DNA of 64,000 bases from Lysobacteraceae bacterium (GTDB taxonomy: Bacteria > Pseudomonadota > Gammaproteobacteria > Xanthomonadales > Xanthomonadaceae), in contig BPKJ01000009.1 in NCBI GenBank assembly GCA_026005075.1, positions 3,435 through 67,434 of the forward strand. Reading direction: 5' to 3'. The stretch's first letter is position 1. Every line of letters begins with the position of its first letter. Shown here one piece after another: positions 9,679-28,120 of this stretch. The notes under the pieces are model-generated. The model was given only the letters and a program-made list of their open reading frames with translations, had not been told where the DNA came from and made no database searches. A program made the position numbers and the translations under genes.

Positions 9679-11724
9679 ATGTACCGCTGGTTGGGCAGCG
9701 GCTTGCTGGTCTTGGCGGCACTGGCCGGTGCCAGCGAGAAGTCCGCGGAACAGGCCGTCGAGCAGTACCGGCAGATCGCGCAGCTGGCGCGGGAGGACCC
9801 CGACGCCGCGCGCGCGGAGCTGGGGCGCTGGCAGCAGCGCCTGGAAGGCGCGGGCGATCCCGATGCGCGCGCGGCGTGGCACCGGGCGCGGGCGCTGCTC
9901 TACCGCCGCGAAGGGCGCCACGACCTCGCCGCCACGGAGCTTGTGCAGGCCCTGGCCTTGCTGGAGGCGGTGCCGGACTCGGTGCAGCGGCCCATGGCGC
10001 AGGTCGAGCTGGCGGTGAGTCACGCTCTGTCCGGCCTCCATGCCGACGCGTTGCCGTTGTTCCGGGAGGCCGCCGAGCGCTTCGCCCGCCTCGGCGACTG
10101 GCAGCGGGCCTCGGCGGCGCTGGCCAACCTCGGCAACAGCCTCGACGCCGGCGGAGACCGTGCCGCGGCGCGCAAGGTCTACGCCGAGGCGCTGGCGATG
10201 AAGCGCGAGCATGGCATCGCCCGCGGCCAGTCCAGCCTGCTCAACAACCTCGCCGACCTCGACGAATCCGAGGGCCTGCTGCCGGCAGCCGCCGCCCGTC
10301 TGCAGGAAGCGGTCGAGCTGGCCCGGCAGGACGAGGACGAGGACAGCCAGGCGCTGGCGCTGGCCAACCTCGTGCGGGTGCTGGCGCGCCAGGAACGGTT
10401 CCAGGAGGCCGAGGCGATGCTGGCCGAGCTCGACCGGCTCGCCGCCAGCCGGCAGCCGCGGCGGCTGGCGGCGCGGCACGAGTCGGCCGCGCTGCTCCAT
10501 CGCGCGCGTGCCGAGGCGGCCACCGACCCGCACGAGCGCGAGCGGCAGTGGCAGGCGGCCCTGGCCATGGTCGAGCGTGCCCTCGCGGTGGCCGAACACT
10601 TCGACGAGCCGGAGCGCAAGGCGCGCCTGCTGCACCTGGCCGGCGAGCTGGAAGCGGCGCTCGGTCGACCGCAGAAAGCCGTGCAGCGCCTCCTCGCCGC
10701 CGAGGCGGTGCAGGCTGCGCTGGAACGGCGCCGGCAGGGCGAGCGTCTGGCGCAGCTGGCCGCGCGCGATCAGGCCTTGCAGCGTTCCCGCGAACTGGCC
10801 GCGGCGCAGCGCCTCGCGCAGCAGCAGCGGTGGATGCTGGCCGGCGCGTTGCTGGCGCTGGGGCTGGCGGTGGCGGTCGGCTTCGGGCTCTGGCGATGGG
10901 GGCGCCAGCGGCGGCTGCGCGCGGCGGAGCTGGCGGCGCTCACCGGCGCGCTGGGAAAGGCGCTCGACCACGCCGAAGCCGAGCGCCAGCGGGCGGAGGC
11001 GCTCGCGGCGCAGCAGGGGCAGCTGCTGCAGCAGGTCGGCCTCGAGCTGCGGGATCCCTTGCTGCGCATCCGCGGCAGTGCGGAGCGGCTGATGGTGCAG
11101 GCCGCCGTCGATGCCGGATTGCGGCTCGAACTGGGGCGGATCGCGCAGGATGCGGCCCGGCTGGTCCATGCCGCCGAGCAGATGGCGGAGAGCGCCGCAA
11201 GGCAGGCGCTCGCGGCACGCCCGGCAGCGGTCGAGGCCGGCGCACTGGTCCGCGCTGTGCTCGCCGAGCTGGAGCGCTGCCGTCCGGCCCCTGCGGGCGG
11301 CTGCACGCTTGAATCGCCCGCCACCCCGGTGCTGGCCGCCGTGGACGGCGAACGTCTGCAGCTGGTCCTGCTGGAGCTGTTGCAGTACCCGACCGCGGCC
11401 GGACCGGGCCGACCCCGCCGCATCCGCGTCGAGGGCACGGCCGACGGCGCCCGCGTCTGGCTGGAGGACCCCGGCGGGAAGCTCTGGGCCATGCTCGACC
11501 CGCAGCAAGCCCCCGCCACGGCGGCGCCGGGCGGACGCTTAGGCCCGTTCTGGATCCGTCGCACGCTCGAGGCGCTCGGTGTCCGCCTCGGCCGTAGCGC
11601 CGCCGGTGCCGCCCTGCACCCGGCCCTGGTCCTGGAGTTGCCGGCCGGAGCGGTCGGGGATGGCGCTGGCGATCCACCAGGCCAGGCCGAGCAGGGCAGC
11701 GCTGGCGAGGAAGGGAAGCCCTGA
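9679..11724 (+). CDS. TPR-repeat membrane sensor with degenerate histidine-kinase domain (pseudokinase)
   Basis: Signal-like N-terminus, TPR repeats (ALANLGN, LLNNLA, ALANLVR), TM WMLAGALLALGLAVAVGFGLW; H-box reads GLELRDPL, with N and G boxes degenerate; RBS GGAGG at 9667. Confidence 0.75.
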   Translation: MYRWLGSGLLVLAALAGASEKSAEQAVEQYRQIAQLAREDPDAARAELGRWQQRLEGAGDPDARAAWHRARALLYRREGRHDLAATELVQALALLEAVPDSVQRPMAQVELAVSHALSGLHADALPLFREAAERFARLGDWQRASAALANLGNSLDAGGDRAAARKVYAEALAMKREHGIARGQSSLLNNLADLDESEGLLPAAAARLQEAVELARQDEDEDSQALALANLVRVLARQERFQEAEAMLAELDRLAASRQPRRLAARHESAALLHRARAEAATDPHERERQWQAALAMVERALAVAEHFDEPERKARLLHLAGELEAALGRPQKAVQRLLAAEAVQAALERRRQGERLAQLAARDQALQRSRELAAAQRLAQQQRWMLAGALLALGLAVAVGFGLWRWGRQRRLRAAELAALTGALGKALDHAEAERQRAEALAAQQGQLLQQVGLELRDPLLRIRGSAERLMVQAAVDAGLRLELGRIAQDAARLVHAAEQMAESAARQALAARPAAVEAGALVRAVLAELERCRPAPAGGCTLESPATPVLAAVDGERLQLVLLELLQYPTAAGPGRPRRIRVEGTADGARVWLEDPGGKLWAMLDPQQAPATAAPGGRLGPFWIRRTLEALGVRLGRSAAGAALHPALVLELPAGAVGDGAGDPPGQAEQGSAGEEGKP

Positions 11725-12882
11725 CCAGGGGCCGCCACCGAGGCCGCGCAGTGCGGCGGCGAAGACCTGGGTGAACAGGGTCGGCGCGAACACGCCGGTC
11801 AGCGCGACGAGACCGGTGACCGCACCCTGCAGCTTGCCCTGGTCGCCCGCGTCCACCTCGCGCGTCATCAGGCTCTGCGCGCAGGGGCCGACCAGCCCCC
11901 AAAGCGCCATCAGCGGAATCGAGGCGAGGAAGGTGGCCCCATCCGGGGCCAGGCCCTGCCAGGCGAAACCCAGCCCGCCGCAGGCCAGCCCCAGCAGCAG
12001 CCCACGGCGCTCGCCGATCCGGGGTACCCAGCGGCGCACGCCCACGGCCTGGACCAGCACGTTGCAGATCCCGACCAGCGCCAGCACCCCGCCGACCCGA
12101 GTCTCCCCCCAGCCGTAGCGATGGGCGGCGTAGAGCACGAACACGCTGGGCAGGGCGTAGTGCGCGAACTGCGAGAGCACCAGGACCGTGGCGAGCCGGC
12201 CGACCCGGGGACGGCCGCGGAGCATCCGTACCGAGGCCAGCGGATGCGCGCGCCGCCAGCGGAACGGTGTGCGCCGGGAGCGGGGCAGGGACTCGGGGAG
12301 GATCAGCAGCCCGTAGAGGAAGTTGGCCAGCGACAGGCCGGCCGCGACCTGGAACGGCAGCCGCAGCTCGATGCCGCCCAGCAGCCCGCCCAGCGCCGGC
12401 CCGACCACGAAGCCGAGGCCGAAGGCCGCACCCAGCAGGCCGTAGCTGGCGGCGCGGCGCTCGGGCGGGACGATGTCGGCGATGTAGGCGTGGGCGGTGC
12501 TGACACTGGCCGAGGTCAGGCCGGCGAGGACCCGGCCGAGGAACAGCACCGGCAGGCTTCCGGCCAGCGCCATCAGCAGGAAATCGAAGCCCAGCCCGAG
12601 GTTGGACAGGAGGATGACCGGCCGGCGGCCGAAACGGTCGCCGAGCGCGCCCTGCACCGGCGAGGCGAGGAACTGCGCCAGCGCGAACGCGCTGCCGAAG
12701 GCCCCCACCCAGAGCGCGGCCTGCGCCACGCCGCCGGCGAGCCGTTCGATCAGGTGGGGCAGCACCGGGATGACGATCCCGATCGCGAGGATGTCCAGCA
12801 CCACGGTGACGAACAGGAACAGCAGCGTGGCGCGGCGCAGGGGGCCGCGGCGCCGGCGCAGATCCGGATCGAGCCCGCTCAC
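11539..12882 (-). CDS. MFS transporter, TCR/Tet (DHA1) family
   Basis: [16 protein letters not shown], motif [41 protein letters not shown]; GTG start overlaps folE stop. Confidence 0.88.
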
Positions 12883-13463
12883 GCTCCGGAGCGGGTCAGG
12901 CGGAGGAACTCGTCGCGGGTGCGTGCATCCTCGCGGAAGCTGCCCAGCAGCGTGCTGGTGACCATGCTCACGCCGCGCTTGTGGATGCCCCGTGTGGTCA
13001 TGCACTGGTGCTCGGCCTCGATCACCACGCCGACCCCGCGCGGCCGGAGCACGCGGTCGATGCACTCGGCGATTTCCGCGGTCAGCTTCTCCTGCACCTG
13101 CAGCCGGCGCGCGAAGCCTTCCACCACCCGCGCCAGCTTGGAGATGCCGACCACCTTGCCGTCCGGCAGATAGCCGACGTGGGCGCGGCCGACGATCGGC
13201 GCCAGATGGTGCTCGCAGTGGCTCTCGAAGGGAATGTCACGCAGCACGATCAGCTCGTCGTAGCCGGCGACCTCCTCGAAGGTGCGCAACAGGTAGGCCT
13301 CGGGGTCCTCGCGGTACCCGGAGAACCAGTCCTCGAAGGCGCGCACGACCCGGGCCGGGGTGTCGCGCAGCCCCTCCCGCTCGGGGTCGTCGCCGGCCCA
13401 GCGCAGGAGGGTACGGACGGCCTCCTCGGCGCTGGCGCGGTCGGGACGTGGGTGCGCACTCAC
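12879..13463 (-). CDS. folE: GTP cyclohydrolase I FolE
   Basis: [50 protein letters not shown] motifs. Confidence 0.95.
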
Positions 13464-13539
13464 GATGGCAGGCTCCTTGCGGTGGGGTGGGCATCGGGGA
13501 CGCGGACGGCGTGCATGCGGGCTCCCGGGTCCTGGCGGA

Positions 13540-14352
13540 TCAGCGCCGGAACTCGTCCTGCAGCGCCTCGAAGTCGGGCACCTCGAACTCGTAGTCCGGG
13601 AGCAGGTAGTCGGGCAGCTCTTCCGAGCAGTCGACGATCTGGCAGCGCCGGTTCTGCAGGTAGACGTCGCGGACCAGCACGTATTCGTCCGCGGCCTCCT
13701 CGAGCAGGGTCTCCGCCGGCAGTGCCCGGGCACGGGCGCTGACGCCGTAGAGGATCGAGTATTCGGGCCCATGCTCGCGCGAGAGCCAGTCGATCGGACT
13801 GACCCGCGCGTTGACCGCCTTGCCCAGTCCGTCGCGCAGGGTCGCCGGGCCGAAGATCGGCAGCATCACGTAGCGTGAGCGCTGCCAGCCCCAGCGGCCC
13901 AGGGTCTGCCCGAAATCGGCGCGGTGGCTGGGCAGCCGTGCATGGGTGGCGGGATCGAGCACGCCACCCAGGCCCAGCGTGGTGTTCATCAGGAACCGGG
14001 CCAGCGATTGCAGCGCGTGGCGCGGCCGCCCCTGCAGGAGCAGGTTCACGCTGACCACCGGCTCGAGCAGGTTGTCGAAGAAGTGGCCGACGCCCTGCTT
14101 GACGAGGCTCGGTGTGACGCGGTCGTAGACGCGCGCCACCGGGCGGAAGATCAGCTTGTCCAGCCCGCGGTTGAAGCGGTACATCGGGCGGTTGAAGCCC
14201 TCCCAGGGATCGAGTTCGCTGGAGGAGCTGAGCGCCGCCCCGGTCGAGCGCTCGGGGTCGGGCGCGGCGGCGCGGGCCGTCGCGAGGAGCGACAGCGCTG
14301 CCAGCAGGGCGGCCAGCGCGACCGTGGGCCAGCGGGTCGAGGGATCAGCCAT
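13540..14352 (-). CDS. mlaA: MlaA/VacJ outer-membrane lipid asymmetry protein
   Basis: [55 protein letters not shown]; lies at the end of the mla operon. Confidence 0.92.
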
Positions 14353-14605
14353 CGTCGTCTCCGAGCGGAGCGAGGCGGTGCGCCTCCAGCAACTGGCGGT
14401 AGTCTGCCGGAACGTGCAGCAGGCGGGTACTTCCGCCGGCGGCCCGGCTGCGGCGCTGCAACTGACGGATCAGCGCGACGCCCGCCGAGTCGAGCCGGGT
14501 GACGGCGGACAGGTCGATGGCCTCCACCGCCCCCGCGGCACGGTGACGGGCCCACAGCTCCGGCACCCTGCCCGCGTCCACCGCGCCACCGAGCTCGATC
14601 CGCAT
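14345..14605 (-). CDS. mlaB: STAS-domain protein MlaB
   Basis: IDLSAVTRLDSAGVALI STAS motif; position between mlaC and mlaA. Confidence 0.85.
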   Translation of the reverse strand: MRIELGGAVDAGRVPELWARHRAAGAVEAIDLSAVTRLDSAGVALIRQLQRRSRAAGGSTRLLHVPADYRQLLEAHRLAPLGDDDG

Positions 14606-14609
14606 TGGC

Positions 14610-15221
14610 TCAGCCCTCCCCGGGGCGGATCTCGCCGCGGGCGAGCTTGGCGGTGAGGCTGTCCAGCGATTCGCTGCGCAGGAGCTGGTCGAACTGGCTG
14701 CGGTAGGTCTGCACGTAGCTCACGCCCTCGACGATCACGTCGAAGGCCCGCCAGCCCGCGGCGGTCTGATGGAACAGGTAGTCGACCGGCACCGGCGGGC
14801 CGGAACGGCGCTGGATCTCGGTGGCGACGCGCACGATGCGGCCGCCGCGCAGCGGCGTCTCGGCCTTGACGCGCACCTCGAGGCCGGGGTCGACCTCAAG
14901 CAGCGCATCGCCGTAGCGGCGCAGCAGGTTGCGGGTGAGGGCGTCGGCGAAGGCCTCGAGCTTCTCGGCATCCACGTCGCGGCCGTTGCGTCCCAGAACG
15001 AGACGGGCCGAGTAGTCACGGTCGAACACCGAGTCCAGCTGCTCGCGCACGAAGGCGTGCAGGGCCTCGGGGTCCTTGCGGAAGGCCTCGCGGCGTTCGG
15101 CCAGGGCCGCCAGCACGGCGCGCGAGCGCTCCGCGACGAGTTGGCCGGGGCTGGCTTCCGGCCCCGCCTTCGCGGGCAGGCCGGCGGCAAGCAGCAGGAA
15201 GGCAAGAAAAAGGGTGCGCAT
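14610..15221 (-). CDS. mlaC: Phospholipid-binding periplasmic protein MlaC
   Basis: Signal peptide; ARLVLGR and WRAFDVIVEGVSYVQTYRSQF motifs. Confidence 0.9.
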   Translation of the reverse strand: MRTLFLAFLLLAAGLPAKAGPEASPGQLVAERSRAVLAALAERREAFRKDPEALHAFVREQLDSVFDRDYSARLVLGRNGRDVDAEKLEAFADALTRNLLRRYGDALLEVDPGLEVRVKAETPLRGGRIVRVATEIQRRSGPPVPVDYLFHQTAAGWRAFDVIVEGVSYVQTYRSQFDQLLRSESLDSLTAKLARGEIRPGEG

Positions 15222-15259
15222 GACGGACTCCGGAAACAGGATGGAAACCAGGGCAGGCT

Positions 15260-15733
15260 CTACTCGCTGGCCGGTCGGGCGCCGCCGTCGCCGCTGCCGA
15301 ACATGTACTTGCCGATCAGCTGCTCCAGCACGACCGCGGACTGGGTGAGGACGATCTCGTCGCCCGGCCGCAGCGGCTCGGGGTCCCCGCCCGGGGTGAT
15401 GCCAATGTAGCGCTCACCCAGCAGGCCGCTCGTGAAGATGCCCGCCGAGCTGTCGGCCGGCAGCTCGCCGGCGGCCGGGGTCAGGTACATCGTCACCACC
15501 GCTTCAAAGCTGCGCGGATCGAGCTCGACCCGGGTCACCTCGCCGACCTTCACGCCGGCGATCTTGACCGGCGCCCTCGGCTTGAGCTCGCCGAGGTTGG
15601 AGAACCTCGCGGTGAGCTCGTAGCCCTCGCCGCCGAGACGGTCGCGGGAGTTGGTCGAGGCAAAGGCGAGCACGAGGGCGCAGGCCAGCCCCATCAGGAT
15701 GAATACGCCAACGCTCCATTCCAGTCGTTGCAT
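15260..15733 (-). CDS. mlaD: MCE-domain protein MlaD
   Basis: LTARFSNLGELKPRAPVKIAGVKVGEV, TSGLLGERYIGITPG. Confidence 0.93.
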   Translation of the reverse strand: MQRLEWSVGVFILMGLACALVLAFASTNSRDRLGGEGYELTARFSNLGELKPRAPVKIAGVKVGEVTRVELDPRSFEAVVTMYLTPAAGELPADSSAGIFTSGLLGERYIGITPGGDPEPLRPGDEIVLTQSAVVLEQLIGKYMFGSGDGGARPASE

Positions 15734-15763
15734 CTTGGCTCTCTCCGCACGCATCCAACGGCT

Positions 15764-16507
15764 TCAGTAAAGGGTCGCACCGAGCACGAAATCGAGGAAC
15801 AGCACCAGCAGGGAGCCGAGGACGACGGACCGCGTGGTGGCGACCGAGGTCCCCTCGATGGTGGCCTCGGCCGCGTAGCCGACGTGCACCGCGATCAGGC
15901 TGCAGGCGAAGCCGAAGGCGGTCGCCTTGGTGAAGCACTGGCCGAAGTCCTTGGCAAGGTCGACCGAGTCCTGCAGCGCGCTCCAGAAGAAGCCGCTGTC
16001 GATGCCGAGCACCCATACCGCCTGCAGGTAGGCGCCGAGGATGGCGAAGGCGCAGAACACCGCAGTGAGCAGGGGCAGGGCGATGAAGCCGGCCACGAAG
16101 CGCGGCGCCACCACCTTGCCGATCGGGTCGATGGCCATCATCGACAAGGCCATGATCTGATCGGTGGCGCGCATCAGTCCGAGCTCCGCGGCCATCGACG
16201 AGCCGGCGCGGCCGCAGAACAGGATCGCCGCCAGCACCGGTCCAAGCTCGCGGTAGAGCGGAATGCCGATGGCCGTGCCGAGGGCGCTGCTGGCCCCGAT
16301 CACCTCCAGCGCCCGGTAGCCCTGCAGCGAGATCACCAGCCCGACGAACAGCCCCCCGACCGCGATGATCGGCAGCGAGCGCGCGCCGACCGTGTAGCAC
16401 TGGACCACGATGTCGTGGAGCTGGCCGCGGCGGAAGTGCAGCGATCCGAGGATGCGCGCGAACAGGATGCCGAGCCGCCCCAGTTCGCCGATCAGGCCGG
16501 AGCTCAT
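15764..16507 (-). CDS. mlaE: ABC permease MlaE
   Basis: RELGPVLAAILFCGRAGSSMAAELGLMRATDQI, ATTRSVV. Confidence 0.93.
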   Translation of the reverse strand: MSSGLIGELGRLGILFARILGSLHFRRGQLHDIVVQCYTVGARSLPIIAVGGLFVGLVISLQGYRALEVIGASSALGTAIGIPLYRELGPVLAAILFCGRAGSSMAAELGLMRATDQIMALSMMAIDPIGKVVAPRFVAGFIALPLLTAVFCAFAILGAYLQAVWVLGIDSGFFWSALQDSVDLAKDFGQCFTKATAFGFACSLIAVHVGYAAEATIEGTSVATTRSVVLGSLLVLFLDFVLGATLY

Positions 16508-17286
16508 GCGCGGTGCCCCCTGTAGTCGAAACCGATGGGCCCGTCCGGCTGGCCGTCGAGAAACTGCCGGAGCAGGGGGTCCTCGGTGCGGACGAGTGCT
16601 TCCGGGCTGCCGTCGAACACCACGCGGGCGTTGGCCACGACGAGGACGTGATCGGCGATCTCGAGCGTCTCGCGGACGTGGTGGGTGATCACCACCGAGG
16701 TCATGCCCAGATGGTCGTTGAGGCGGCGGACGAGCGCGAGGATGACCCCGCAGGCGATCGGATCGAGCCCGGTCAGCGGCTCGTCGTAGAGCATCAGCGG
16801 CGGGTCGAGCACCAGCGCCCGGGCCAGCGCGACCCGTCGCGCCATGCCGCCCGAGAGCTGCTGCGGCATCAGTTCGCCGGCCTCGGCCAGGCCCACCGCC
16901 GAGAGCTTCATCCGCACCAGCTCGGCCAGCACCTCCTCGGGCAGGTCGGTGTGCATGCGCAGGGGCAGGGCGACGTTCTCGAACACCGAGAGGTCGGTGA
17001 GCAGGCCGTTGCCCTGCAGCAGCACGCCCATGCCGCGACGGAGCGCGAACAGCTCGCGCTGGCTGGGCCGCGGCAGCGGCTGCCCCAGGACCTCGATCCG
17101 GCCCGCGCTGGGAGCCAGCTCTCCGGTGATGGCCCAGAGCAGGGTGGACTTGCCGGCGCCACTCGGTCCCAGCACCGCGGTCACCGCCCCCTTGCGCAGG
17201 GCGAAGCTGGCATCGCCGACGATCAACCGCGAACCGCGGCGGAGGTCGACCTTGTCGAAGCGGATGGCAGGTTCGGCGGGCGTCAT
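16504..17286 (-). CDS. mlaF: ABC ATPase MlaF (alternative start 17328)
   Basis: Walker A GPSGAGKS, signature LSGGM, YDEPLTGLDP. Confidence 0.92.
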   Translation of the reverse strand: MTPAEPAIRFDKVDLRRGSRLIVGDASFALRKGAVTAVLGPSGAGKSTLLWAITGELAPSAGRIEVLGQPLPRPSQRELFALRRGMGVLLQGNGLLTDLSVFENVALPLRMHTDLPEEVLAELVRMKLSAVGLAEAGELMPQQLSGGMARRVALARALVLDPPLMLYDEPLTGLDPIACGVILALVRRLNDHLGMTSVVITHHVRETLEIADHVLVVANARVVFDGSPEALVRTEDPLLRQFLDGQPDGPIGFDYRGHRA

Positions 17287-17366
17287 CGGCGGGGCAGGCG
17301 GGGGGCGGCCGCGGGGGCCGCTCACCATGTCCGCAGCAGCATGAAGGGATTCTGAAGGGGACGCCA

Positions 17367-18116
17367 TCATGACCTCTGGCCTGCGGCGGTGCCAGCGTCG
17401 CGCTCCGGGAGAGCCGGGGACGCCGTCTCCAGCCGCCAGCCGAACAGGTCCAGGGCACGCTGGAACCCGGCGTCCAGCGGGGCCTCGACCTCCACCCGCC
17501 GGCCCTGCCCGTCGGTCCAGCCAAGACGCCAGGCGTGCAGCAGCATGCGGTGGACGCCGCGGGCCCGGAACATGCGGTTGCGCTGGCCGTCGCCATGGCT
17601 GGTATCGCCCACCAGCGGGTGGCGGATGTGCTTGAGGTGACGGCGGATCTGGCGGAAGCGCCCGCTCAGCGGCCGACACCGCAGCAGGGCGAAGCGCGCG
17701 GTGGGAAATCCGGCCGCCGCTTCCGGCAGCTCGCCTCGGGCCAGCACCTCGAAGGCCGTGCGTGCCGGCTTGCGCGTCGGCTTGCCGGGGCCGCCATCGA
17801 GCGGATGGTCGATCAGCCCGGTGTCCTCCGGCCAGCCGCGGCAGACGGCGAGGTAGTCCTTGTCCACCTCGCGCGCCATCAGCCGCCTGCCCATGGCGGT
17901 GGCGGTGTCGCGGTCGAGCGCCAGCATCAGGCAACCGCTGGTCGCCCGGTCGAGGCGGTGGACGAGGAACACCGGCCCGCCGAACTGCCGGCGCAGACGG
18001 TCGATGGCGAACTCGGACTCGCCGCGGGCCAGCGCCGAGTCGTGGACCATCAGCCCGGCCGGCTTGTCCACCACGACCAGGGCATCGTGCTGGTAGAGGA
18101 CGGTCAGTGCGGACAC
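17367..18116 (-). CDS. truC: tRNA pseudouridine synthase (RluA family, TruC-like)
   Basis: VVDKPAG, catalytic HRLDRATSG, GRFRQIRRHL, GDTSHGD, MLLHAWRL. Confidence 0.85.
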   Translation of the reverse strand: MSALTVLYQHDALVVVDKPAGLMVHDSALARGESEFAIDRLRRQFGGPVFLVHRLDRATSGCLMLALDRDTATAMGRRLMAREVDKDYLAVCRGWPEDTGLIDHPLDGGPGKPTRKPARTAFEVLARGELPEAAAGFPTARFALLRCRPLSGRFRQIRRHLKHIRHPLVGDTSHGDGQRNRMFRARGVHRMLLHAWRLGWTDGQGRRVEVEAPLDAGFQRALDLFGWRLETASPALPERDAGTAAGQRS

Positions 18117-19782: not shown

Positions 19783-20423
19783 CGCGTGGCCTCGCGGCGG
19801 GGCGCGAGGCGGTCGAGCCTTGCCTCCAGCCGCTCCACCGCTTCGCGCAGCGCATCCACCTCGTCGAAGAAGGCTTCCTGCTCGGCCCGCGAGACGAGGT
19901 CGCGACGCTCCTCGACGAGATGCTCGACGCCGCCGCGGAGCAGGCCGCGGCCCAGCTCCCGGCCCTGCCGCAGGGCCTCGCGCAGGGCCTGCGCGATCTG
20001 CACGCCGAGGACCTCGCCGAACACGCCCGCAAAGGCGTCTTCGAGATCGGGGTCGAAGTCCGCAGCCAGCCGTTGCAGCTGGCGGGCGAGCTCGACGTCG
20101 CCCTCGATGCGGAGCTGCCCGGGTGCGGCCGCCGGCGTGCCCGGAAGCAGCCGGCTCAGCACCGCACCCAGGCCGGCCTTCAGGCGCAGGTCGGGCTCGG
20201 GGTCGGAGGCGGCCGGGCCGACGCGGATGCGCCCGGCCTCCACGCGGAGTTCCATGCCCAGCGGAGGCGCGGCGAGGTGGAGCTGGATGCGGCGGCCCTC
20301 GAGCTCCGCCAGCCGCTCGCGCGCCTCGGGGTCGAGGGCAAGAGCGCGGCCGAGGGCGGCCTCGAGCAGGGCGCCGGCCGCCGGCAGGGCGGCCCGCAGA
20401 GGGTTGGGAGCAGGCGGATTCAT
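19779..20423 (-). CDS. ubiJ: Ubiquinone biosynthesis accessory factor UbiJ (SCP2 domain)
   Basis: [35 protein letters not shown]; stop overlaps ubiB start. Confidence 0.9.
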
Positions 20424-20586
20424 GCGGCCATTGTAGGCCGGATGCAGGTGCGGACGGGTCGGCGCTGCGGCGCCGGCAACCGGAAGCCGGACCCAGGTGG
20501 CGAGCGGCCGCTGCGGTCTGCCCGGGGTCCGGCACGTCCTCGCCAACGGCCGCACGCCGACCCGCACGCTGCGGGTGTTTCCCCTC

Positions 20587-20614
20587 TTGGCAGCGGCCGG
20601 GGAAGCGCTATGCT
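20587..20614 (+). promoter_or_regulatory. Putative sigma70 promoter of the ECF/anti-sigma operon
   Basis: TTGGCA-N16-TATGCT, followed by GGAGG at 20628-20632 before ATG 20642. Confidence 0.4.
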
Positions 20615-20641
20615 GGCCCTGCGGCATGGAGGTGCGGGCGG

Positions 20642-21289
20642 ATGGCTGGCGGGTGCGGCACCAACTCGGCAGCGGAACGGGCGCGACCCGCGTTGCGGGT
20701 CGTCGGCGGCCGTGCGCGCGGGGCGCTCGACTACGCCGAGCTGCTCCAGCGCGTGGCCGCGGGCGATGCGCTGGCCGAAACGGAGCTGCTGCGCGCGCTC
20801 TCGGAGCCGCTGGCGCTGGTGCTCCGCCGGCGCCTGGGCCGCGACGAGCGCTGCGCCGACCTGCAGCAGGACACACTGCTTGCCGTGCTCGAGGCGGCAC
20901 GGGCAGGGCGCATCCGCGAGCCGCAGGCGCTGGTCGAGTTCACGCTGTCCACGGCACGCCAGCTCGCGCTCAATCTCGAGCGCAAGCGGCGTCGGCGGCG
21001 TACCGATCCGGACAGCGAGGCGCTGGAGCGGATGGCCGACCCGAACCAGGCCGGCATGGCCGAGGCGCTGGCCCTCGAGGAGCGGCGGCACTGCGTGCGG
21101 GCGGTGCTGGCTTCGATGCCCAACCCGCGTGACCGCCAGATCCTGTTCAGCTACTACCTCGACCAGCAGCCGACCCGGCAGGTGCAGGCCCGCTTCGCGC
21201 TCGACAGCGTGCAGCTGGGCCGGGTCCTGCACCGGGCCCGCCAGCGTTTCGCGGCGCTGTGGCGGGCGCTGCGCCTCGACCCGACCTGA
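20642..21289 (+). CDS. ECF RNA polymerase sigma factor
   Basis: Region 2 (AAGDALAE..DLQQDTLLAVL..ARQLALN) and region 4 HTH (RDRQILFSYY..GRVLHRARQRF). Confidence 0.88.
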   Translation: MAGGCGTNSAAERARPALRVVGGRARGALDYAELLQRVAAGDALAETELLRALSEPLALVLRRRLGRDERCADLQQDTLLAVLEAARAGRIREPQALVEFTLSTARQLALNLERKRRRRRTDPDSEALERMADPNQAGMAEALALEERRHCVRAVLASMPNPRDRQILFSYYLDQQPTRQVQARFALDSVQLGRVLHRARQRFAALWRALRLDPT

Positions 21290-21318
21290 GCTGCCGTCTT
21301 TCGTGGAGGAGCCCCGAG

Positions 21319-21951
21319 ATGCCGATGCCGCCGCCGAAGCTTTCCGACGAGGACAATCGCCTGCTGCGGGCCTGGCGCAGGGGCGATCTGGACGAGGAGG
21401 CCAGCCTCGCCTTCGAGACCCGGCTTTTTCTGGAACCGGGCCTGCTGCGCGCGGCCCAGATCGACGAGGCCATGGCGGGCGGGCTGGGCGACGAGGCGCA
21501 AGGTCGGCAGCCGGGCAGGGAGCCTGCGTGGCCGTGGAAGCTGGTGGCCGGACTGGCGCTGGCGGCCGGGATGGCCGGGGCCGTGCTCTGGCCGTTGCGC
21601 CAGGATACCCGCACCCTGCTGGCCGCCGGCAAGGTCGAGTGGGTCAGCCTCGATGTGCGCAGGGGTGGCGGGGAGCCGATGATGGTCGCTCCCGGGCCCG
21701 ACACGCGCCTGCTCGCGCTGGAAGTGCCGGTGCCGGGAGGTGACGATGGCCTCTACGACCTGAGCGTGATCCCGGCGACCGGGGGGCAGGCTCCGATCCA
21801 GGTCAGCCGGCTGAGCGCCGAGCAGGGCATGCTCAACCTTGCCTTCGAGCGGGAGGCCCTGCCGCCGGGCGTGTACTTCGTTGAGATCCGTGCCCACGGC
21901 GAGCAGGAAGGCCAGCCCCTGCAGAAGCTGGCCTTCCGCTATCGGCGCTGA
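21319..21951 (+). CDS. Putative single-pass anti-sigma factor
   Basis: Directly downstream of the ECF gene with GGAGGA RBS; N-terminal anti-sigma-like helices (WRRGDLDEEASLAFETRL), TM WKLVAGLALAAGMAGAVLW, beta-rich C-terminal domain. Confidence 0.72.
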   Translation: MPMPPPKLSDEDNRLLRAWRRGDLDEEASLAFETRLFLEPGLLRAAQIDEAMAGGLGDEAQGRQPGREPAWPWKLVAGLALAAGMAGAVLWPLRQDTRTLLAAGKVEWVSLDVRRGGGEPMMVAPGPDTRLLALEVPVPGGDDGLYDLSVIPATGGQAPIQVSRLSAEQGMLNLAFEREALPPGVYFVEIRAHGEQEGQPLQKLAFRYRR

Positions 21952-21962
21952 GCCTTGAGCAA

Positions 21963-22346
21963 TCAATAGTTGGGATCGCCCTCGTCGGGGTCGATGTCGT
22001 GCTCGCTGCCCTGCGTTGCGGCGGCTCCGTCCTCGCTGGAGTCGGCCCCGAGCAGTTCCTTGAGCCAATCCAGCCAGCCGGCCTCCGCCTCGTCGCCGAG
22101 GCTCGGCGTATCGGCCGGCGCGAGCGGCTCCGCGGCGACGCCGCCCATGGCGCCCAGACCCAGCAGCAGGGCCAGCAGCAGGGCCGGGCGCAGCGGCCAT
22201 GGGTGGTTGCGGCGTGCCTTCTCGCGTGCACGCGGGTCGAGAAAGACCTGCCGCTCCCAGGCGGCGTGGTCGTGGTGGCGGTCCGGGCTCGCGGTGCGGT
22301 CGGCGCGGTTGCGGCGCGGGGTATGGCCCTTGGTGTGTGCATGCAT
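21963..22346 (-). CDS. Small secreted acidic protein / peptide precursor (127 aa)
   Basis: GGAGG RBS before ATG; hydrophobic ALLLALLLGLGAMGGVAA with AxA cleavage site; acidic mature region ending GSEHDIDPDEGDPNY. Confidence 0.65.
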   Translation of the reverse strand: MHAHTKGHTPRRNRADRTASPDRHHDHAAWERQVFLDPRAREKARRNHPWPLRPALLLALLLGLGAMGGVAAEPLAPADTPSLGDEAEAGWLDWLKELLGADSSEDGAAATQGSEHDIDPDEGDPNY

Positions 22347-22447
22347 GATCCAGTCCTCCGTGGTCGTGGACCGCCGACATGGCGGCCCGCCTCGGAGGTG
22401 TCCCGAGCACGCGCGATCTCCCACCCCCGCGGGATGGCGGGTTGCGG

Positions 22448-25400
22448 TCAGCCTGCGCTGGGGGCGCGGCGGAGGACGAACCAGCCTGCCCAATGCGTCG
22501 GGTGGCGCAGTGCGGGTTGCCGCAGCAGCTCGGCCCTGGCCTCGGCGAGCGCGCGCTCGGGGGCGTCGGGCTGGCGGGCGAGGGCGCGGTGGAAGGCCAC
22601 CGAGAAGGCCATCGCCGCGCGATCCCCGACCGCCCAGCGCGAGCCGACCACGGCGTCCGCGCCGGCTTCGGCCAGCGCCTCGGCGACGCCGCCGACCCCA
22701 AGGCCGAAGAGGCCGCCGCCACGGCCGGTCTCGCAGGCCGAGAGGACCACCAGCCCGGCGTTGACCGCGAGACCGCGAAGGCGTTGCGCGCTCAGGAAAT
22801 CGGGGCGGTCACCGGTTCCGGCCAGCCACAGGCCGGAGGCCTCGAAGCGGTGGGTCGAGGCACGGGCGTGGGTGGCGAGATGGATCAGGGCACCGGGGGC
22901 GGCCAGTGCCTCCAAAAGGTCGGTGCGGCGGGCTCGGCTGTGGACGCTGACCGGCGCCGACGCCGCCCAGGTGTCCGCGACCGCGGTCAGCTCGGCCTGC
23001 ACGGCATGGAGCGGGGGCAGCCCGGCGCCCGGGCTGCCCGCCACGCCCAGTACGCGCACGGTGCGGGGCTGGGGCGTGGCGCGTGGATCGGGGCCCAGCA
23101 CCCAGCCGATCGCGGGGTGCAGGCCCTCGGGCAGCGCAAGGCTGAGCGGCGTGGTCGCCAGCGCCTGCTGCGCCCCGATCCACAAGGTGTGCACGCCAGG
23201 GCGCAGCCATCGTTCCCAGCCCAGCGCGGCACGCAGCGCGGCCGCCCGGCGCCCGATCTCGGCGCTGTCGCCATGACCCTCGGCGAGCAGCGTCAGCAAG
23301 GCGCTGCGGGCATCCAGAAAGGCCTCCCGGTCGATGGGCCACCAGGACCAGCGCCGGCCGTCGAGGATCAGCCAACCCATGTCCTCCTCCGAGACCAGGG
23401 GCAGGGCCAGCATCACGCCGGCGCCAAGCCGGGGAGGATCCGGGGCGAGGTGGGCGGGGGCGGCGGGCGGTCTGGGATCGGGCGCGGCGCCGGGCAGGGC
23501 AAGGCGCAAGGCCGGGCCCGCAGGGGCGGGGGCATCGGTCTCGGCCAGCCACTCGGCGGCGAGCGCGCGCTCCAGGGCGAGCAGACGGTCGTCGGCGGTC
23601 GGTGCCAGCGCGGCCATCTGGGTCTGGGCCAGCCGCGCCGCCCAGTGATGGACGCGGGCACCCAGCGCCGGATCGACCGCGCCGGGCGCCTGGGTGGCGA
23701 GGACGCTGGCCCCGAGTCGGTGCAGGCTGGCGAGCAGCGCCTGCCGCAGCGCCGGCGTGCGCAACGTGGATGCGATCGGCAGGAACCGGTCGAGGAGTCG
23801 CTCGGCGAGGTCGAGCGCGTCGGTTCCGCCCTCCCGTCCGCGCTGGCGGATGCAATGCTCGCCAAGCTCCAGCGCCAGCAGCAGCGGTCCTTCCTCGAGA
23901 ACCTGCCGCAGGCTGGCTTCGCAGTCGATGGCGGGCGTTGCGGTCAGGCCGAGCGCGGCGCCGAGCAGACGGGCGCGCAGCGCCAGCCTGGGCTCGCGCG
24001 GCACGCCCACCTGGCTCAGCGCCGCGCGCGCCGCGGCCGGGTTGCCGGCGCGGCGGTGGATCTCGCCGAGGGTCAGCAAGGCGCGTTCGCCGAGACCGAC
24101 CTCGCCGAGCCGGGTCAGTTCGGCCATGGCCCGATCGGCCTGCTCGCGGGCGGCCTCGGTCTCGCCAAGGTCCAACTGCGCCTGCGCCAGCGCGAGCCGG
24201 ATCCGTGCGCGCTGGCGTGACGGCGAGGTGCCCTGCAGCCGCTGCACGGCGCTTTCGAAGAACACCACCGCGCGGCCGGCCTCGCCGGCCAGGCGGTAGG
24301 TGCTGCCCAGCAGGTAGTCGATGCGGGCTGCGCCGGCGGTGTCTTGGGGGTCGGTGCGGGCCGCGACCTCGCCGAGCAGGGCCAGCGCCTCGTCGAAGCG
24401 GCCTGCCCAGGTCAGCTGCTGGGCCCGCTGCCGGCGCAGGCTGGCATGGGCCTCGGGCTGGCTGGCGAGGACCGGCATGCGTGCGGCCCGGTCGAGTTCC
24501 TCGCCCGCCTCGCGGTAGCGCCCCGCCAGGCTCAGCGCGGTGGCGAGGTTGAGGCGGGTGTAGAGCGCGGCGGCCGCCTCACCCAGCGCGAGCTGGCGCG
24601 CCACCACCCTCCGGTAGCAGGCGATGGCGGGTTCGAGCGCACCGAGCAGGCGCTGCTGCAGGCAGACGCCGTGCTCCGCCACGGTGGCGGGGTAGGCCAT
24701 GCCCAGTTCGAGGAAGCGTTGGCGGGCTTCCTCCAGCCGCGCCAGCGCACGCTGGCCGTCACGCTCGCGCAGGGCCCGGCCCTCGGCGAGCAGGGCGTGC
24801 GCCAGCAGGCGTGGCGGTCCGCGCGTGCGCGCACGCTGCACCAGCACCGCTGCCCAGCCGGCGGCCTCGGCGTCGAGGTGGCTATCCTCGGCCAGTCGCC
24901 ACAGCTGGCCGAGCACCCAGTCCTGCTCGGCTGCGCCCAGCCCTGGCGCGGCGCGCAGCAGGAACAGGCGGGCGGCGAGCAGGGCGGCCGCGAGCGGATC
25001 CGGGCCGCTGCGCAGGCGGGCATGCGCCACCGCCAGCTCGGCGAGTCGGGCCGCGTTGCGCGCGGCGGGATCCTGCTCGGCGACGCAGCTCAGCGCGACG
25101 GCGGGCAGGGGTCGGTCGGGGCCTTCCGCGTGCCGTATCGCCCTCGACCAGACGGGGTCGGCGGCGGCGCTGAGGTGCACCGGCACCGCACCCTCGCGCG
25201 GCGGCCAGGTCGGCAGGGCCCGGTCCGCGTCGAGCACCTCCCATTCGGCGCCGCGGTTGCGGATCCAGCCGATCACGGCCCAGCCGGGTTCGGGGCGCTC
25301 CACCCGTACCTGGTGCGCGTCCACCTCCGCCACCGGAGGATCCGGGCAGGCCGCGTGCACGGGGTCGAAGCGGGGCAGCACGGCCAGCGCCAGCACCAGC

Positions 25401-25483
25401 CAGCACGGCACGACCCGCCGCCGCGGCCGCTGCAGGATCCCTCGCGGTCGCGTCCTGCCGGCACTGGGGTGGCGGTCGGGCAT
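22448..25483 (-). CDS. TPR + CHAT (caspase-like C50/separase-related) domain protein with N-terminal signal-like segment
   Basis: TPR helices; CHAT motifs IHLATH (His at 22868-22870), LVVLSACETG (Cys at 22733-22735), AVVGSRWAVGD, HPTHWAGW. Confidence 0.88.
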   Translation of the reverse strand: MPDRHPSAGRTRPRGILQRPRRRVVPCWLVLALAVLPRFDPVHAACPDPPVAEVDAHQVRVERPEPGWAVIGWIRNRGAEWEVLDADRALPTWPPREGAVPVHLSAAADPVWSRAIRHAEGPDRPLPAVALSCVAEQDPAARNAARLAELAVAHARLRSGPDPLAAALLAARLFLLRAAPGLGAAEQDWVLGQLWRLAEDSHLDAEAAGWAAVLVQRARTRGPPRLLAHALLAEGRALRERDGQRALARLEEARQRFLELGMAYPATVAEHGVCLQQRLLGALEPAIACYRRVVARQLALGEAAAALYTRLNLATALSLAGRYREAGEELDRAARMPVLASQPEAHASLRRQRAQQLTWAGRFDEALALLGEVAARTDPQDTAGAARIDYLLGSTYRLAGEAGRAVVFFESAVQRLQGTSPSRQRARIRLALAQAQLDLGETEAAREQADRAMAELTRLGEVGLGERALLTLGEIHRRAGNPAAARAALSQVGVPREPRLALRARLLGAALGLTATPAIDCEASLRQVLEEGPLLLALELGEHCIRQRGREGGTDALDLAERLLDRFLPIASTLRTPALRQALLASLHRLGASVLATQAPGAVDPALGARVHHWAARLAQTQMAALAPTADDRLLALERALAAEWLAETDAPAPAGPALRLALPGAAPDPRPPAAPAHLAPDPPRLGAGVMLALPLVSEEDMGWLILDGRRWSWWPIDREAFLDARSALLTLLAEGHGDSAEIGRRAAALRAALGWERWLRPGVHTLWIGAQQALATTPLSLALPEGLHPAIGWVLGPDPRATPQPRTVRVLGVAGSPGAGLPPLHAVQAELTAVADTWAASAPVSVHSRARRTDLLEALAAPGALIHLATHARASTHRFEASGLWLAGTGDRPDFLSAQRLRGLAVNAGLVVLSACETGRGGGLFGLGVGGVAEALAEAGADAVVGSRWAVGDRAAMAFSVAFHRALARQPDAPERALAEARAELLRQPALRHPTHWAGWFVLRRAPSAG

Positions 25484-25510
25484 CGGCCTGCCGGGCGGGA
25501 AGCCGACCGG

Positions 25511-28120
25511 TCAGCGCGCCGCGGCGGCGAGGAAGTCCTCCGCAAAGCGCTGCAGCACCCCGCCGGCCTCGTAGATCGCGACCTCCTCGGCGGTGTCGAG
25601 CCGGCAGCGCACCGGCACCGTCTCGCTGCGCCCGTCACGGCGATGGATGGCCAGTTCCAGCGTCGCGCCCGGACTGCGCTGGCCGCGCACGTCGTAGGTC
25701 TCGGTGCCGTCGAGGCCGAGCGTCCGCCGGGTGGTGCCCGGGAGGAATTCCAGCGGCAGCACGCCCATGCCGATCAGGTTGGTGCGATGGATGCGCTCGA
25801 AACCCTCGGCCACGATGGCCTCGACCCCCGCAAGACGCACGCCCTTGGCGGCCCAGTCGCGGGAGCTGCCCTGGCCGTAGTCCTTGCCGGCGAGGATGAT
25901 CAGCGGCTGGGCGCGTTGCATGTAGGTCTCGATCACCTCCCACATCCGCATCACCTTGCCCTCGGGCTCGAGGCGGGCCAGCGAGCCTTGCCGGACCTTG
26001 CCCTGGTCATCGCGCACCATCTCGTTGAACAGCTTGGGGTTGGCGAAGGTGGCACGCTGCGCGGTGAGGTGGTCGCCGCGGTGGGTGGCGTAGGAGTTGA
26101 AGTCCTCTTGCGGCACGCCCATGCTCGCGAGGTACTCGCCGGCGGCGCTGTCCGGAAGGATGGCGTTGCTGGGCGAGATGTGGTCGGTGGTGATGTTGTC
26201 GCCGAGGATCGCCAGCGGGCGCATCCCGGACAGGGTGCGCGGCCTGGCCAGCGCGCCTTCCCAGTACGGCGGGCGGCGAATGTAGGTGCTGCGTGGCCGC
26301 CACGCGTAGAGCGGCTCGACCTGCGCGCTGGCCTCCACGGCGGGCCGGAACATGGGTTCGTACACCTGCCGGTAGTGCTCGGGCTTGACCGCGCGGGCCA
26401 CGACGGCGTCGATCTCCTCGTCGCTGGGCCAGAGGTCACGCAAGGTGATCGGCGTGCCGTCGGCACGCTGGCCGAGCGGGTCGCGCTCGATGTCGAAGCG
26501 GATGCTGCCGGCGATGGCGTAGGCCACGACCAGCGCCGGCGAGGCCAGAAAGGCCTGTTTGGCGTGCGGATGGATGCGGCCGTCGAAGTTGCGGTTGCCG
26601 GAGAGCACGGCGACCGTGTACAGGTCGCGTTCCACGATCTCCCGCTCGATCGCCGGGTCGAGCGCGCCCGACATGCCGTTGCAGGTCGTGCAGGCAAAGC
26701 CGACCACGCCGAAGCCGAGGCGTTCCAGCTCGCGGTCCAGCCCGGCCTCCCTGAGGTACAGCGCCACCGCGCGCGATCCGGGGGCCAGCGAGCTCTTCAC
26801 CCACGGCTTGCGTGCAAGGCCGAGCGCGTTGGCCTTGCGTGCCAGCAGCCCTGCGGCGATCACGTTGCGCGGGTTCGAGGTGTTGGTGCAGGAGGTGATG
26901 GCGGCGATGATCACCGCGCCATCGGGCATGCGGCCCGCGGCTGCGTCGGCACGGACACGCTCCTGGTCGCGGGCGATGCCGCGCGCGGCCAGTTCGCGGG
27001 TGGGCAGGCGGGCATGCGGATGGGACGGTCCGGCGAGCGTACGCTCGACGGTGGAAAGGTCGAAACGCAGGTGCCGGTCGTAGCGGGCTTGCCTCAGCCC
27101 GTCCGCCCACAGACCCGCGGCCTTGGCGTAGGTCTCGACCAGCGCGACCTGCTGCGGGTCGCGGCCGGTCAGCCGCAGGTAATCGAGGGTGTTGGCGTCG
27201 ATGTGGAACAGGGCCGCGGTGGCCCCGTACTCGGGGGCCATGTTGGAGATCGTCGCCCGATCGCCGATGCCCAGCGTCGCCGCGCCCTCGCCGTGGAACT
27301 CGAGGTAGGCGCCGACCACGCGCTCGCGGCGCAGGAACTCGGTCAGGGTCAGGACGATGTCGGTGGCGGTCACGCCCGCCTGCGGACGGCCGGTGAGCTC
27401 GACGCCGACCATCTCCGGAAGCCGCATCCACGATGCCCGGCCGAGCATCACGCTCTCCGCCTCGAGGCCGCCAACGCCGACCGCGATCACGCCGAGCGCA
27501 TCGACGTGCGGCGTATGGCTGTCGGTGCCCACGCAGGTGTCGGGGAAGGCGACCCCATCCACGACCTGGACCACGGGCGACATCTTCTCGAGGTTGATCT
27601 GATGCATGATCCCGTTGCCCGGCGGAATCACCTGCACGTTGCGGAAGGCGCGCCGGCACCACTCGATGAAGTGGAAGCGGTCCTCGTTGCGGCGCTCCTC
27701 GATCGCGCGGTTCTTCGCGAAGGCCTCGGGGTCGTCGCCGCCATGCTCGACCGCCAGCGAGTGGTCCACGATCAACTGCACCGGCACGACCGGATTGACG
27801 CAGGACGGATCGCCCCCTTGCGCGGCGATCGCGTCACGCAGGCCCGCGAGGTCCACGAGCGCGGTCTGGCCGAGGATGTCGTGGCAGACCACGCGGGCCG
27901 GGAACCATGGGAAATCGCGGTCGCGCCTGCGCTCGACGATCTGGCTCAGGCATTCGTCGAGGATCTCGGGGTCGCAGCAACGCACGAGGTTCTCGGCGTG
28001 GACGCGGGCGGTGTAGGGCAGGCCCTCCCAGGCGCCGGGGCGGATCGCCTCGACCGCCTCGCGGGCATCGAACCAGTCGAAGGGGGTGCCGGGAAGGGGC
28101 TTGCGGTGGCGGCGGTTCAT
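25511..28120 (-). CDS. acnD: Fe/S-dependent 2-methylisocitrate dehydratase AcnD
   Basis: ARVVCHDILGQTALVDLAGLRD, GTDSHT, AITSCTNTSNP, FACTTCNGMSG, TTDHISP. Confidence 0.95.
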   Translation of the reverse strand: MNRRHRKPLPGTPFDWFDAREAVEAIRPGAWEGLPYTARVHAENLVRCCDPEILDECLSQIVERRRDRDFPWFPARVVCHDILGQTALVDLAGLRDAIAAQGGDPSCVNPVVPVQLIVDHSLAVEHGGDDPEAFAKNRAIEERRNEDRFHFIEWCRRAFRNVQVIPPGNGIMHQINLEKMSPVVQVVDGVAFPDTCVGTDSHTPHVDALGVIAVGVGGLEAESVMLGRASWMRLPEMVGVELTGRPQAGVTATDIVLTLTEFLRRERVVGAYLEFHGEGAATLGIGDRATISNMAPEYGATAALFHIDANTLDYLRLTGRDPQQVALVETYAKAAGLWADGLRQARYDRHLRFDLSTVERTLAGPSHPHARLPTRELAARGIARDQERVRADAAAGRMPDGAVIIAAITSCTNTSNPRNVIAAGLLARKANALGLARKPWVKSSLAPGSRAVALYLREAGLDRELERLGFGVVGFACTTCNGMSGALDPAIEREIVERDLYTVAVLSGNRNFDGRIHPHAKQAFLASPALVVAYAIAGSIRFDIERDPLGQRADGTPITLRDLWPSDEEIDAVVARAVKPEHYRQVYEPMFRPAVEASAQVEPLYAWRPRSTYIRRPPYWEGALARPRTLSGMRPLAILGDNITTDHISPSNAILPDSAAGEYLASMGVPQEDFNSYATHRGDHLTAQRATFANPKLFNEMVRDDQGKVRQGSLARLEPEGKVMRMWEVIETYMQRAQPLIILAGKDYGQGSSRDWAAKGVRLAGVEAIVAEGFERIHRTNLIGMGVLPLEFLPGTTRRTLGLDGTETYDVRGQRSPGATLELAIHRRDGRSETVPVRCRLDTAEEVAIYEAGGVLQRFAEDFLAAAAR

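Follow-up and report, generated by a model that had tools for sequence, protein, structure and literature searches.

Canonical regulated intramembrane proteolysis (RIP) of anti-sigma factors is exemplified by RseA, with the proteases DegS and RseP, and by RsiW, with PrsW and RasP. To our knowledge, the site-1 proteases of such pathways are serine or metallo enzymes, whose genes lie outside the sigma operon. Here we describe a locus that seems to depart from this rule, in a 64,000 nucleotide stretch of Lysobacteraceae bacterium DNA (contig BPKJ01000009.1, positions 3,435 to 67,434), which is called the window below. It encodes a sigma factor of the extracytoplasmic function (ECF) type, a candidate anti-sigma factor, a small protein and a predicted exported TPR-CHAT protein. 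The closest described relative is DdvA of M. xanthus, where a zinc-binding three-helix anti-sigma domain, a transmembrane (TM) helix and a periplasmic TPR-CHAT are found in one polypeptide (PMC11506125). The authors of that study propose that signal-induced self-cleavage of a linker by CHAT is the site-1 step, to be followed by RseP, and they showed that truncated DdvA is lost in an RseP-dependent way (PMC11506125). In the CRISPR type III-E system, composed of Cas7-11, Csx29, Csx30 and CASP-sigma, Csx29 cleaves the sigma inhibitor Csx30 (PMC10028731). Finally, the ECF54 group has been noted for its CHAT, subtilase and carboxypeptidase neighbours (PMC8999054).

We propose that the four genes form a conserved envelope signalling module, a split version of DdvA/DdvS, in which CHAT would be a signal-gated site-1 protease acting on the anti-sigma factor or on its small paralogue. 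Our estimate of the probability of this reading is about 45%. Elements of the locus are the following, with coordinates of the window.

20642..21289, + strand: ECF-type sigma factor, 215 aa (TIGR02937; GGAGG ribosome-binding site)
21319..21951, + strand: candidate single-pass anti-sigma factor, 210 aa (from position and architecture)
21963..22346, - strand: small protein, 127 aa (GGAGGA ribosome-binding site; found in 13/13 loci)
22448..25483, - strand: TPR-CHAT caspase-like protease, 1011 aa, activity and export predicted (PF12770 at 2.9e-37, plus TPR_12)
20587..20614, + strand: putative sigma-70-type promoter TTGGCA-N16-TATGCT, preceding the ECF/anti-sigma operon
21646..21666, + strand: S110-L-D112-V-R114-R115-G116 motif, with which the anti-sigma periplasmic domain begins; its recognition by a protease is speculative
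22868..22870, - strand: codon of catalytic His872, in IHLATHA, invariant in 26 family members
22733..22735, - strand: codon of catalytic Cys917, in LSACETG, invariant in 26 family members

The association of these genes was examined in other genomes, using hidden Markov models (HMMs) of the four proteins run over all open reading frames (ORFs) of each locus. The ECF and anti-sigma genes were convergent with the small and CHAT genes in 13 of 13 distinct Lysobacterales loci with enough sequence, and in one partial 14th; two further loci, ending just past the anti-sigma gene, were not counted. ECF, anti-sigma and CHAT were present in all 13, while the small protein was detected by HMM in 11 and, in a divergent form, by manual ORF reading in the other 2. 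Sizes in the contexts inspected were about 215 aa for the ECF, 210 aa for the anti-sigma and 1000 aa for TPR-CHAT. The anti-sigma gene lies directly 3' of the ECF gene in every locus (spacing of 0-30 nt, or a slight overlap), and the small gene of the Lysobacterales loci always adjoins the CHAT gene. Flanks vary by locus (acnD/ubiJ, a lipase chaperone with a histidine kinase (HK-RR), asnB encoding asparagine synthase, or DUF1223), and a 13/13 recurrence with differing flanks makes the arrangement more than chance. A scan with the anti-sigma alignment over one genome per species (185,579 species) yielded ten loci, all in Lysobacterales (Pseudomarimonas, Lysobacter, Arenimonas and Pseudoxanthomonas metagenome-assembled genomes). 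In the reverse test, a metagenome scan with the CHAT alignment, 79 of 80 loci carried a generic CHAT; the sole full-length member of the family had an anti-sigma gene convergent to it, and is the partial 14th locus. An ECF of the same family was near only one of the 79 generic loci (L053), and this locus proved to be one of the second clade described below. Pairwise divergences of ECF, anti-sigma and CHAT were correlated (Mantel r 0.74-0.85, 0/2000 permutations as high), which fits co-inheritance but also reflects species phylogeny.

In this second clade the genes are on one strand, in the order ECF (202 aa), anti-sigma (226-242 aa), TPR-CHAT with a signal peptide (~1120 aa), a small gene and a subtilase (Peptidase_S8, ~1050 aa). 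All 4 loci examined, of 4, keep the first three colinear. The product of the small gene is a lipoprotein in L101, and probably in L099 and L100 too. Anti-sigmas of the two clades are homologous (hhalign E 1.2e-5 over 171 columns), and the second-clade ECF relative passes the Sigma70_r2 model at 3.4e-10. When the ECF alignment was used for a profile search, 526 proteins came up at E ≤ 1e-10, most of the 120 matches listed being of the 202-203-aa type. The second clade is much larger than that of Lysobacterales. A triad of ECF, anti-sigma and exported CHAT, kept in two clades with different gene orders, is strong evidence of a functional link. The sequence-only reading of this locus had staked itself on co-occurrence of the genes in other genomes, and on this point it clearly came through. 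The second-clade loci (L053, 23-7084; L099, L100 and L101, ~9001-17800) are always near dnaG-rpoD. The CHAT gene of L100 is split into a TPR and a CHAT piece, probably by assembly frameshifts.

In this region the window has a G+C content of about 72-77%, so that long spurious ORFs are plentiful; the four genes stand out all the same. An independent gene caller, applied to a 99%-identical Logan contig, gave the same four products (215, 210, 127 and 1011 aa), and GGAGG-type ribosome-binding sites precede the ECF, anti-sigma and small genes (GGAGG 9 nt 5' of the ECF ATG, GGAGGA 8 nt 5' of that of the small gene). The genes are where they had been placed at the outset, the two convergent stop codons being separated by 11 nt (21952-21962), and the predicted active-site cysteine codon is that of C917. 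The setting among housekeeping genes was also right: ubiB and ubiJ flank the module at one end, and acnD does so at the other. The window sequence was present in DNA metagenome runs only (hot spring, wastewater, soil).

The TPR-CHAT protein matches PF12770 with 129 bits, for a gathering cutoff of 24, and has the catalytic dyad, which places it among CHAT peptidases. Its AF2 model (pLDDT 86, pTM 0.84) comprises a signal peptide (aa 1-45), a beta-sandwich (58-135), a TPR superhelix (139-645), a disordered linker (654-678) and the CHAT domain (690-1005). Signal peptides were read in 7 of the 7 orthologues inspected, with some 23 residues before the hydrophobic segment in the window protein, and they predict export of the protein to the periplasm. 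Anchoring as a lipoprotein by the Cys that follows the signal peptide was considered and rejected, this residue being well inside the mature protein in several orthologues. No variation is seen at H868, H872 or C917 across 26 family members that share 25-46% identity, and invariance of the dyad at such distances argues for real catalysis. Likewise, C133, C274 and C289 are invariant in the same 26 sequences, which fits an oxidising compartment. At the dyad histidine, the window protein has His-Ala (THA; 22868-22873, - strand), in contrast to the His-Gly (AHG) of the family consensus and of caspases.

Foldseek top matches of the TPR-CHAT model were Csx29 (2.8e-12), human separase (5.5e-12) and DdvA (8rot_A, 1.2e-11), the latter with 17% identity over 973 columns, the highest among the top structural matches. 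A PDB sequence search with the CHAT protein returned nothing, and the family profile compared to PDB gave only TPR proteins and a weak separase match; the relation to DdvA is visible at fold level only. The TPR profile is nearest to the peptide-binding TPRs of LGN/Pins, with weak matches to the RRNPP receptors NprR and Rap. A word-index homologue search gave a single close relative, and exhaustive HMMER was needed to collect the family, which consists of about 30 clusters (at 50% identity) of full-length relatives; beyond these, only the CHAT domain aligns.

We infer from its predicted structure and its position that the 210-aa protein is a single-pass anti-sigma factor. The AF2 model (pLDDT 81 overall, above 90 in both domains) shows an N-terminal three-helix bundle (aa 10-60), a TM segment (~aa 71-93) and a periplasmic beta-sandwich (aa 105-208). 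Both the exported CHAT protein with its His-Cys dyad and the TM anti-sigma factor of the sequence-only reading are thus recovered. The family comprises 36 homologue clusters, down to 37% identity, and those with an organism name are Lysobacterales. No Pfam family matched, and the NCBIfam anti-sigma match was weak. Residues 1-60 contain no Cys or His, and none is found among the invariant columns. The periplasmic sandwich gave only generic structural matches, to Ig-like, cupredoxin and macroglobulin domains; weak matches to the cysteine-protease inhibitor EhICP2 (E 3e-3 to 7e-3) were judged uninformative. The most conserved periplasmic element is S110-L-D112-V-R114-R115-G116, with D112, R114 and R115 invariant and S110 nearly so in 28 anti-sigma sequences, and this element aligns with LESVR(A/G)G and LDALRGG of second-clade anti-sigmas. 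The separase site motif is quoted as (S/D/E)xExxR (PMC11506125). The S-x-D-x-R-R motif resembles it and, speculatively, could be a cleavage site.

The small protein of the window has three parts. Its basic N-terminal region, with an anti-sigma-like motif (aa ~19-47), is followed by a short hydrophobic segment (aa ~52-72), at the end of which stands an AxA-like site. The third part, the acidic tail (aa 73-127), contains an amphipathic W/L helix and a D-P..G that is invariant. No Pfam family matched. The 13 members, of 102-144 aa, share an architecture more than a sequence. In all of them a region of 42-78 residues, with a net charge of 0 to +10, precedes the hydrophobic segment, and the tail is 43-64 residues long, with a net charge of -5 to -15. 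The hydrophobic segment itself is ~12-17 residues long, often ends in Pro/Gly, and is followed in nearly all 13 by a small-x-small sequence. The N-terminus contains E-x-R-L-F-F-D-P-x-L-L, which matches the anti-sigma helix A-F-E-T-R-L-F-L-E-P-x-L-L, and hhalign of the small protein against the anti-sigma family gives a probability of 93.4% (E 2.5e-7). This match makes the small protein a paralogue of the cytoplasmic part of the anti-sigma factor, and the kinship ties the CHAT operon to the sigma/anti-sigma interaction. The small protein may be either an anti-sigma-like, signal-anchored membrane protein, or a pre-protein whose unusually long and functional signal peptide frees an acidic periplasmic peptide. 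We found no description of such a small anti-sigma paralogue in the literature.

The ECF protein belongs to group IV of sigma-70 factors, as indicated by TIGR02937 (2e-12 over residues 46-202) and by Sigma70_r2, at 5e-5 and just short of the cutoff (23.5 bits for 24). Orthologues in 12 other loci share 45-70% identity with it. An N-terminal extension of ~30-45 poorly conserved residues (20642-20770, + strand) precedes a P-D-Y-A...G-D block; every Lysobacterales orthologue has it in some variant form, and that of the second clade is far shorter (~13 residues). TTGGCA-N16-TATGCT is the sole sigma-70-like promoter in positions 20300-25700 (1 found for 0.1 expected), and the GCTATGCTGG -10 block is kept 5' of the ECF gene in most orthologous loci. 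Such a conserved promoter suits a sensor pair that would be made constitutively. Just 5' of it, in loci L002 (~7150-7200), L003, L008 and L009, lies an inverted repeat GTTTGA-N(11-15)-TCAAAC, which looks like an operator for a repressor or activator; this repeat is absent from positions 20420-20640 of the window. We looked in both clades for an ECF-type -35/-10 motif 5' of the ECF or CHAT genes, and found no convincing shared one. In seven loci (L004, L005, L006, L011, L013, L017 and L018), -10-like boxes (CATCAT, GATCAT, CAAGAT, TAAGGT) stand 6-9 nt before the CHAT start, and no Shine-Dalgarno sequence is found at these starts, which suggests leaderless or near-leaderless CHAT transcripts. 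In four of them (L011, L013, L017, L018) a conserved CTCG(T/C)CA lies 18 nt further 5' of the box. In the window, the CHAT start is just 27 nt past the acnD stop, so that CHAT may be co-transcribed with acnD.

The mechanism that we propose runs as follows. The ECF and its single-pass anti-sigma factor would be made from the sigma-70-type promoter, and the convergent operon would supply a Sec-exported TPR-CHAT, then the small protein, whose basic N-terminus copies part of the putative sigma-binding region of the anti-sigma factor and whose acidic tail would face the periplasm. TPR-CHAT is likely to have this tail as its ligand, as a tether or as a pseudo-substrate. At rest, the protease would be inactive in the periplasm, where the acidic amphipathic tail may fill the peptide-binding groove of the TPRs or the active site. 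An envelope signal would switch the protease on, and CHAT, acting in trans, would clip the periplasmic part of the anti-sigma factor or of the small paralogue, possibly at the S-x-D-x-R-R loop; to see CHAT as the site-1 protease is a reasonable inference. The stub would then be removed by the site-2 protease RseP and by cytoplasmic proteases, thereby freeing the sigma factor. A more detailed version, in which a periplasmic switch of the separase/securin kind has the acidic tail of the paralogue restraining CHAT until a signal leads to cleavage after the S-x-D-x-R-R ([DE]xxR) sequence of the Ig-like domain, with the same core logic in the second clade, is doubtful.

A number of observations weigh against the proposal. 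In DdvA, CHAT proteolysis was never observed, and the dyad mutants behaved like the wild type (PMC11506125). The anti-sigma profile, compared to PDB sequences, detected no anti-sigma, and no relation of the 210-aa protein to solved or curated anti-sigma domains could be detected in its sequence, so that its role is deduced from position and architecture. The [DE]xxR motif is at the edge of a folded beta-sandwich, and its conservation could be structural. The second clade lacks the small anti-sigma paralogue, and in its stead has a lipoprotein and a subtilase, so that the paralogue is not essential to the core mechanism. Transcript evidence was sought, and no RNA run contained the window sequence. 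More generally, the scheme starts from what is established here, namely the gene models and their domains, the export signals, the conserved dyad, the fold, the co-occurrence and the small-protein paralogy, and each protein-protein contact, each cleavage, the signal and the regulon are deduced from these. Lastly, since no ECF-type promoter was found, the CHAT and small genes could be outputs of the system rather than inputs.

This last point opens onto the main rival explanation, which we consider possible, though on the unlikely side: the ECF/anti-sigma pair would sense by some other route, and the CHAT-small operon would be its conserved target regulon, devoted to envelope remodelling, predation or defence, with the small protein as a partner or immunity-like factor and CHAT not acting on the anti-sigma factor. 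ECF sigmas indeed often adjoin the genes that they control, and those who classified the ECFs state that a neighbouring gene can be a regulator or a target (PMC7826278). The convergent orientation separates two transcription units, of which the ECF operon has its own sigma-70-type promoter, and the large secreted subtilase 3' of CHAT in the second clade resembles an effector set. However, no shared ECF-type promoter was found 5' of the CHAT genes, which have CATCAT or CAAGAT -10-like boxes near the start instead, the small protein copies an N-terminal motif of the anti-sigma factor, and DdvA provides a precedent for a TPR-CHAT placed physically on an anti-sigma. If the four genes were mere neighbours, as the housekeeping flanks of this one window, and nothing else, might have suggested, their recurrence in 13 of 13 loci with differing flanks and in the second clade would not be expected, nor the finding that only one generic CHAT locus in 79, itself of the second clade, is near an ECF of this family; chance adjacency is refuted by these counts and is, in our view, extremely improbable.

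The two other explanations keep the link between CHAT and anti-sigma, and change the part played by the small protein or by the dyad. The sequence-only reading had seen the small gene product as a secreted peptide, possibly for quorum sensing. In that scheme, signal peptidase would free the acidic C-terminal peptide of 45-60 residues, and TPR-CHAT would sense or process it as an autocrine or quorum signal gating anti-sigma cleavage. A short hydrophobic segment followed by small-x-small, as at a signal-peptidase site, is present in nearly all 13 proteins, the tail has a conserved amphipathic helix and the invariant D-P..G, and the TPR profile, with its weak NprR/Rap matches, resembles those of peptide-binding TPRs. 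Yet the n-region of 42-78 residues is far longer than in a normal cleaved signal peptide, and its conserved anti-sigma-like motif argues that this N-terminal part has its own role in the cytoplasm; a periplasmic peptide of a Gram-negative bacterium is not obviously exported past the outer membrane, and the second clade has no counterpart of the small gene. The gene is real, and a variant with a secreted peptide is conceivable if improbable, but the product is not simply a secreted peptide, and nothing supports quorum sensing. TPR-CHAT could also be non-catalytic: as a scaffold or a receptor for a ligand in the periplasm, in the manner of RseB or CnrX, it would bind the Ig-like domain of the anti-sigma factor and leave the site-1 cut to another protease. 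The CHAT site of DdvA is in a resting, incomplete state, and mutants of its dyad have no phenotype (PMC11506125); the window protein has His-Ala in place of the consensus His-Gly. Invariance of H872, C917 and the surrounding motifs in 26 sequences at 25-46% identity is nevertheless hard to explain without catalysis, and makes this explanation quite improbable.

Under our proposal of a split, CHAT-triggered module, the protease and the anti-sigma factor are on two polypeptides, so that the CHAT site-1 cut is reducible to a simple trans-cleavage experiment. At least one named strain, Pseudomarimonas salicorniae CAU 1642, carries the locus; a genome assembly exists for it, and it is presumably culturable. 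The link between ECF and CHAT appears broader than the fused form, with a Lysobacterales clade and a second clade of hundreds of ECF sequence clusters, and the small anti-sigma paralogue is a newly described component. If the proposal is true, the dedicated triggers of RIP would include proteases of the caspase family, besides serine and metallo enzymes; should the separase/securin-like switch hold as well, an ECF pathway would have a caspase-family enzyme as its dedicated and genetically linked site-1 protease.

Other genes were seen around these loci. The aconitase next to the module in the window (25511-28120, - strand) is of the AcnD type, an Fe/S-dependent 2-methylisocitrate dehydratase (TIGR02333, 1663 bits); its gene marks a methylcitrate-cycle locus, and prpF is near it in P. 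salicorniae. In P. arenosa-type loci, a gene of 495-500 aa with a sub-threshold DUF4139 match lies between the anti-sigma and small genes, on the ECF strand (L003, 9175-10662; L008, 9172-10674), and L008 also has an extra exported protein of 167 aa. One subclade (L004, 3630-6391; L005, 1983-4270) has two genes immediately 5' of the ECF gene and on the same strand, one for a hybrid histidine kinase and one for a stand-alone response regulator, which may constitute an additional regulatory input. There were no cas genes in the Pfam-annotated gene lists of the loci inspected, in both clades, and PADLOC returned only generic CHAT matches, with nothing meaningful and no adjoining defence island.

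How does the module compare with the systems described so far? We found no description of a split ECF/anti-sigma/CHAT module in the literature. The sequence-only reading knew of no characterised example, which is not quite so: DdvA/DdvS is a partly characterised relative for which the same site-1 idea was proposed (PMC11506125), and the CHAT and subtilase neighbours of ECF54 had been noted (PMC8999054). ECF54 shares with the ECF of the second clade a genomic link to CHAT and S8 proteases, but it is actinobacterial and has no anti-sigma, whereas an anti-sigma candidate is present here in every locus and the ten species genomes are all Lysobacterales. As in canonical RIP, the ECF would be held by a single-pass anti-sigma, with a periplasmic site-1 cut followed by a site-2 cut; the difference lies in a caspase-family cysteine protease genetically linked to the sigma/anti-sigma pair. 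Craspase, the type III-E effector, likewise links a TPR-CHAT protease to the release of an ECF-like sigma by inhibitor cleavage, which for the present module is a supposition, and Csx29 is the best structural match. Craspase is, however, cytoplasmic, RNA-guided and CRISPR-associated, whereas we deal here with an exported protease and a membrane anti-sigma; with no cas genes in the gene lists of the loci inspected, and with an export signal on the protein, the module is not a Craspase. With separase and securin it shares the fold, TPR/helical-CHAT, and possibly a [DE]xxR site in the anti-sigma factor and an acidic pseudo-substrate in the tail of the small protein, but separase is a eukaryotic nuclear enzyme, and the analogy of site and inhibitor is speculative.

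The comparison with DdvA/DdvS is the closest. In both, an ECF gene adjoins that of a single-pass anti-sigma with a cytoplasmic three-helix bundle, here predicted; both have a periplasmic TPR-CHAT of the separase/craspase type with a His-Cys dyad, which in our case comes from signal peptides, conservation and Foldseek; and the proposed logic, a CHAT site-1 cut followed by RseP, is the same. They differ in that the TPR-CHAT is not fused but is here a separate protein, with its own signal peptide and encoded on the convergent strand, and in that the anti-sigma ends in an Ig-like periplasmic domain, lacks the CHCC zinc site of DdvA, and is accompanied by an extra small anti-sigma-like protein. No CBASS or CRISPR defence island adjoins the module, DdvA and the proteins described here have no sequence-level similarity, and their hosts are Myxococcota and Lysobacterales, respectively. 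With no fusion, no zinc site and no defence island nearby, the module is not a member of the DdvA family. It probably works like DdvA.

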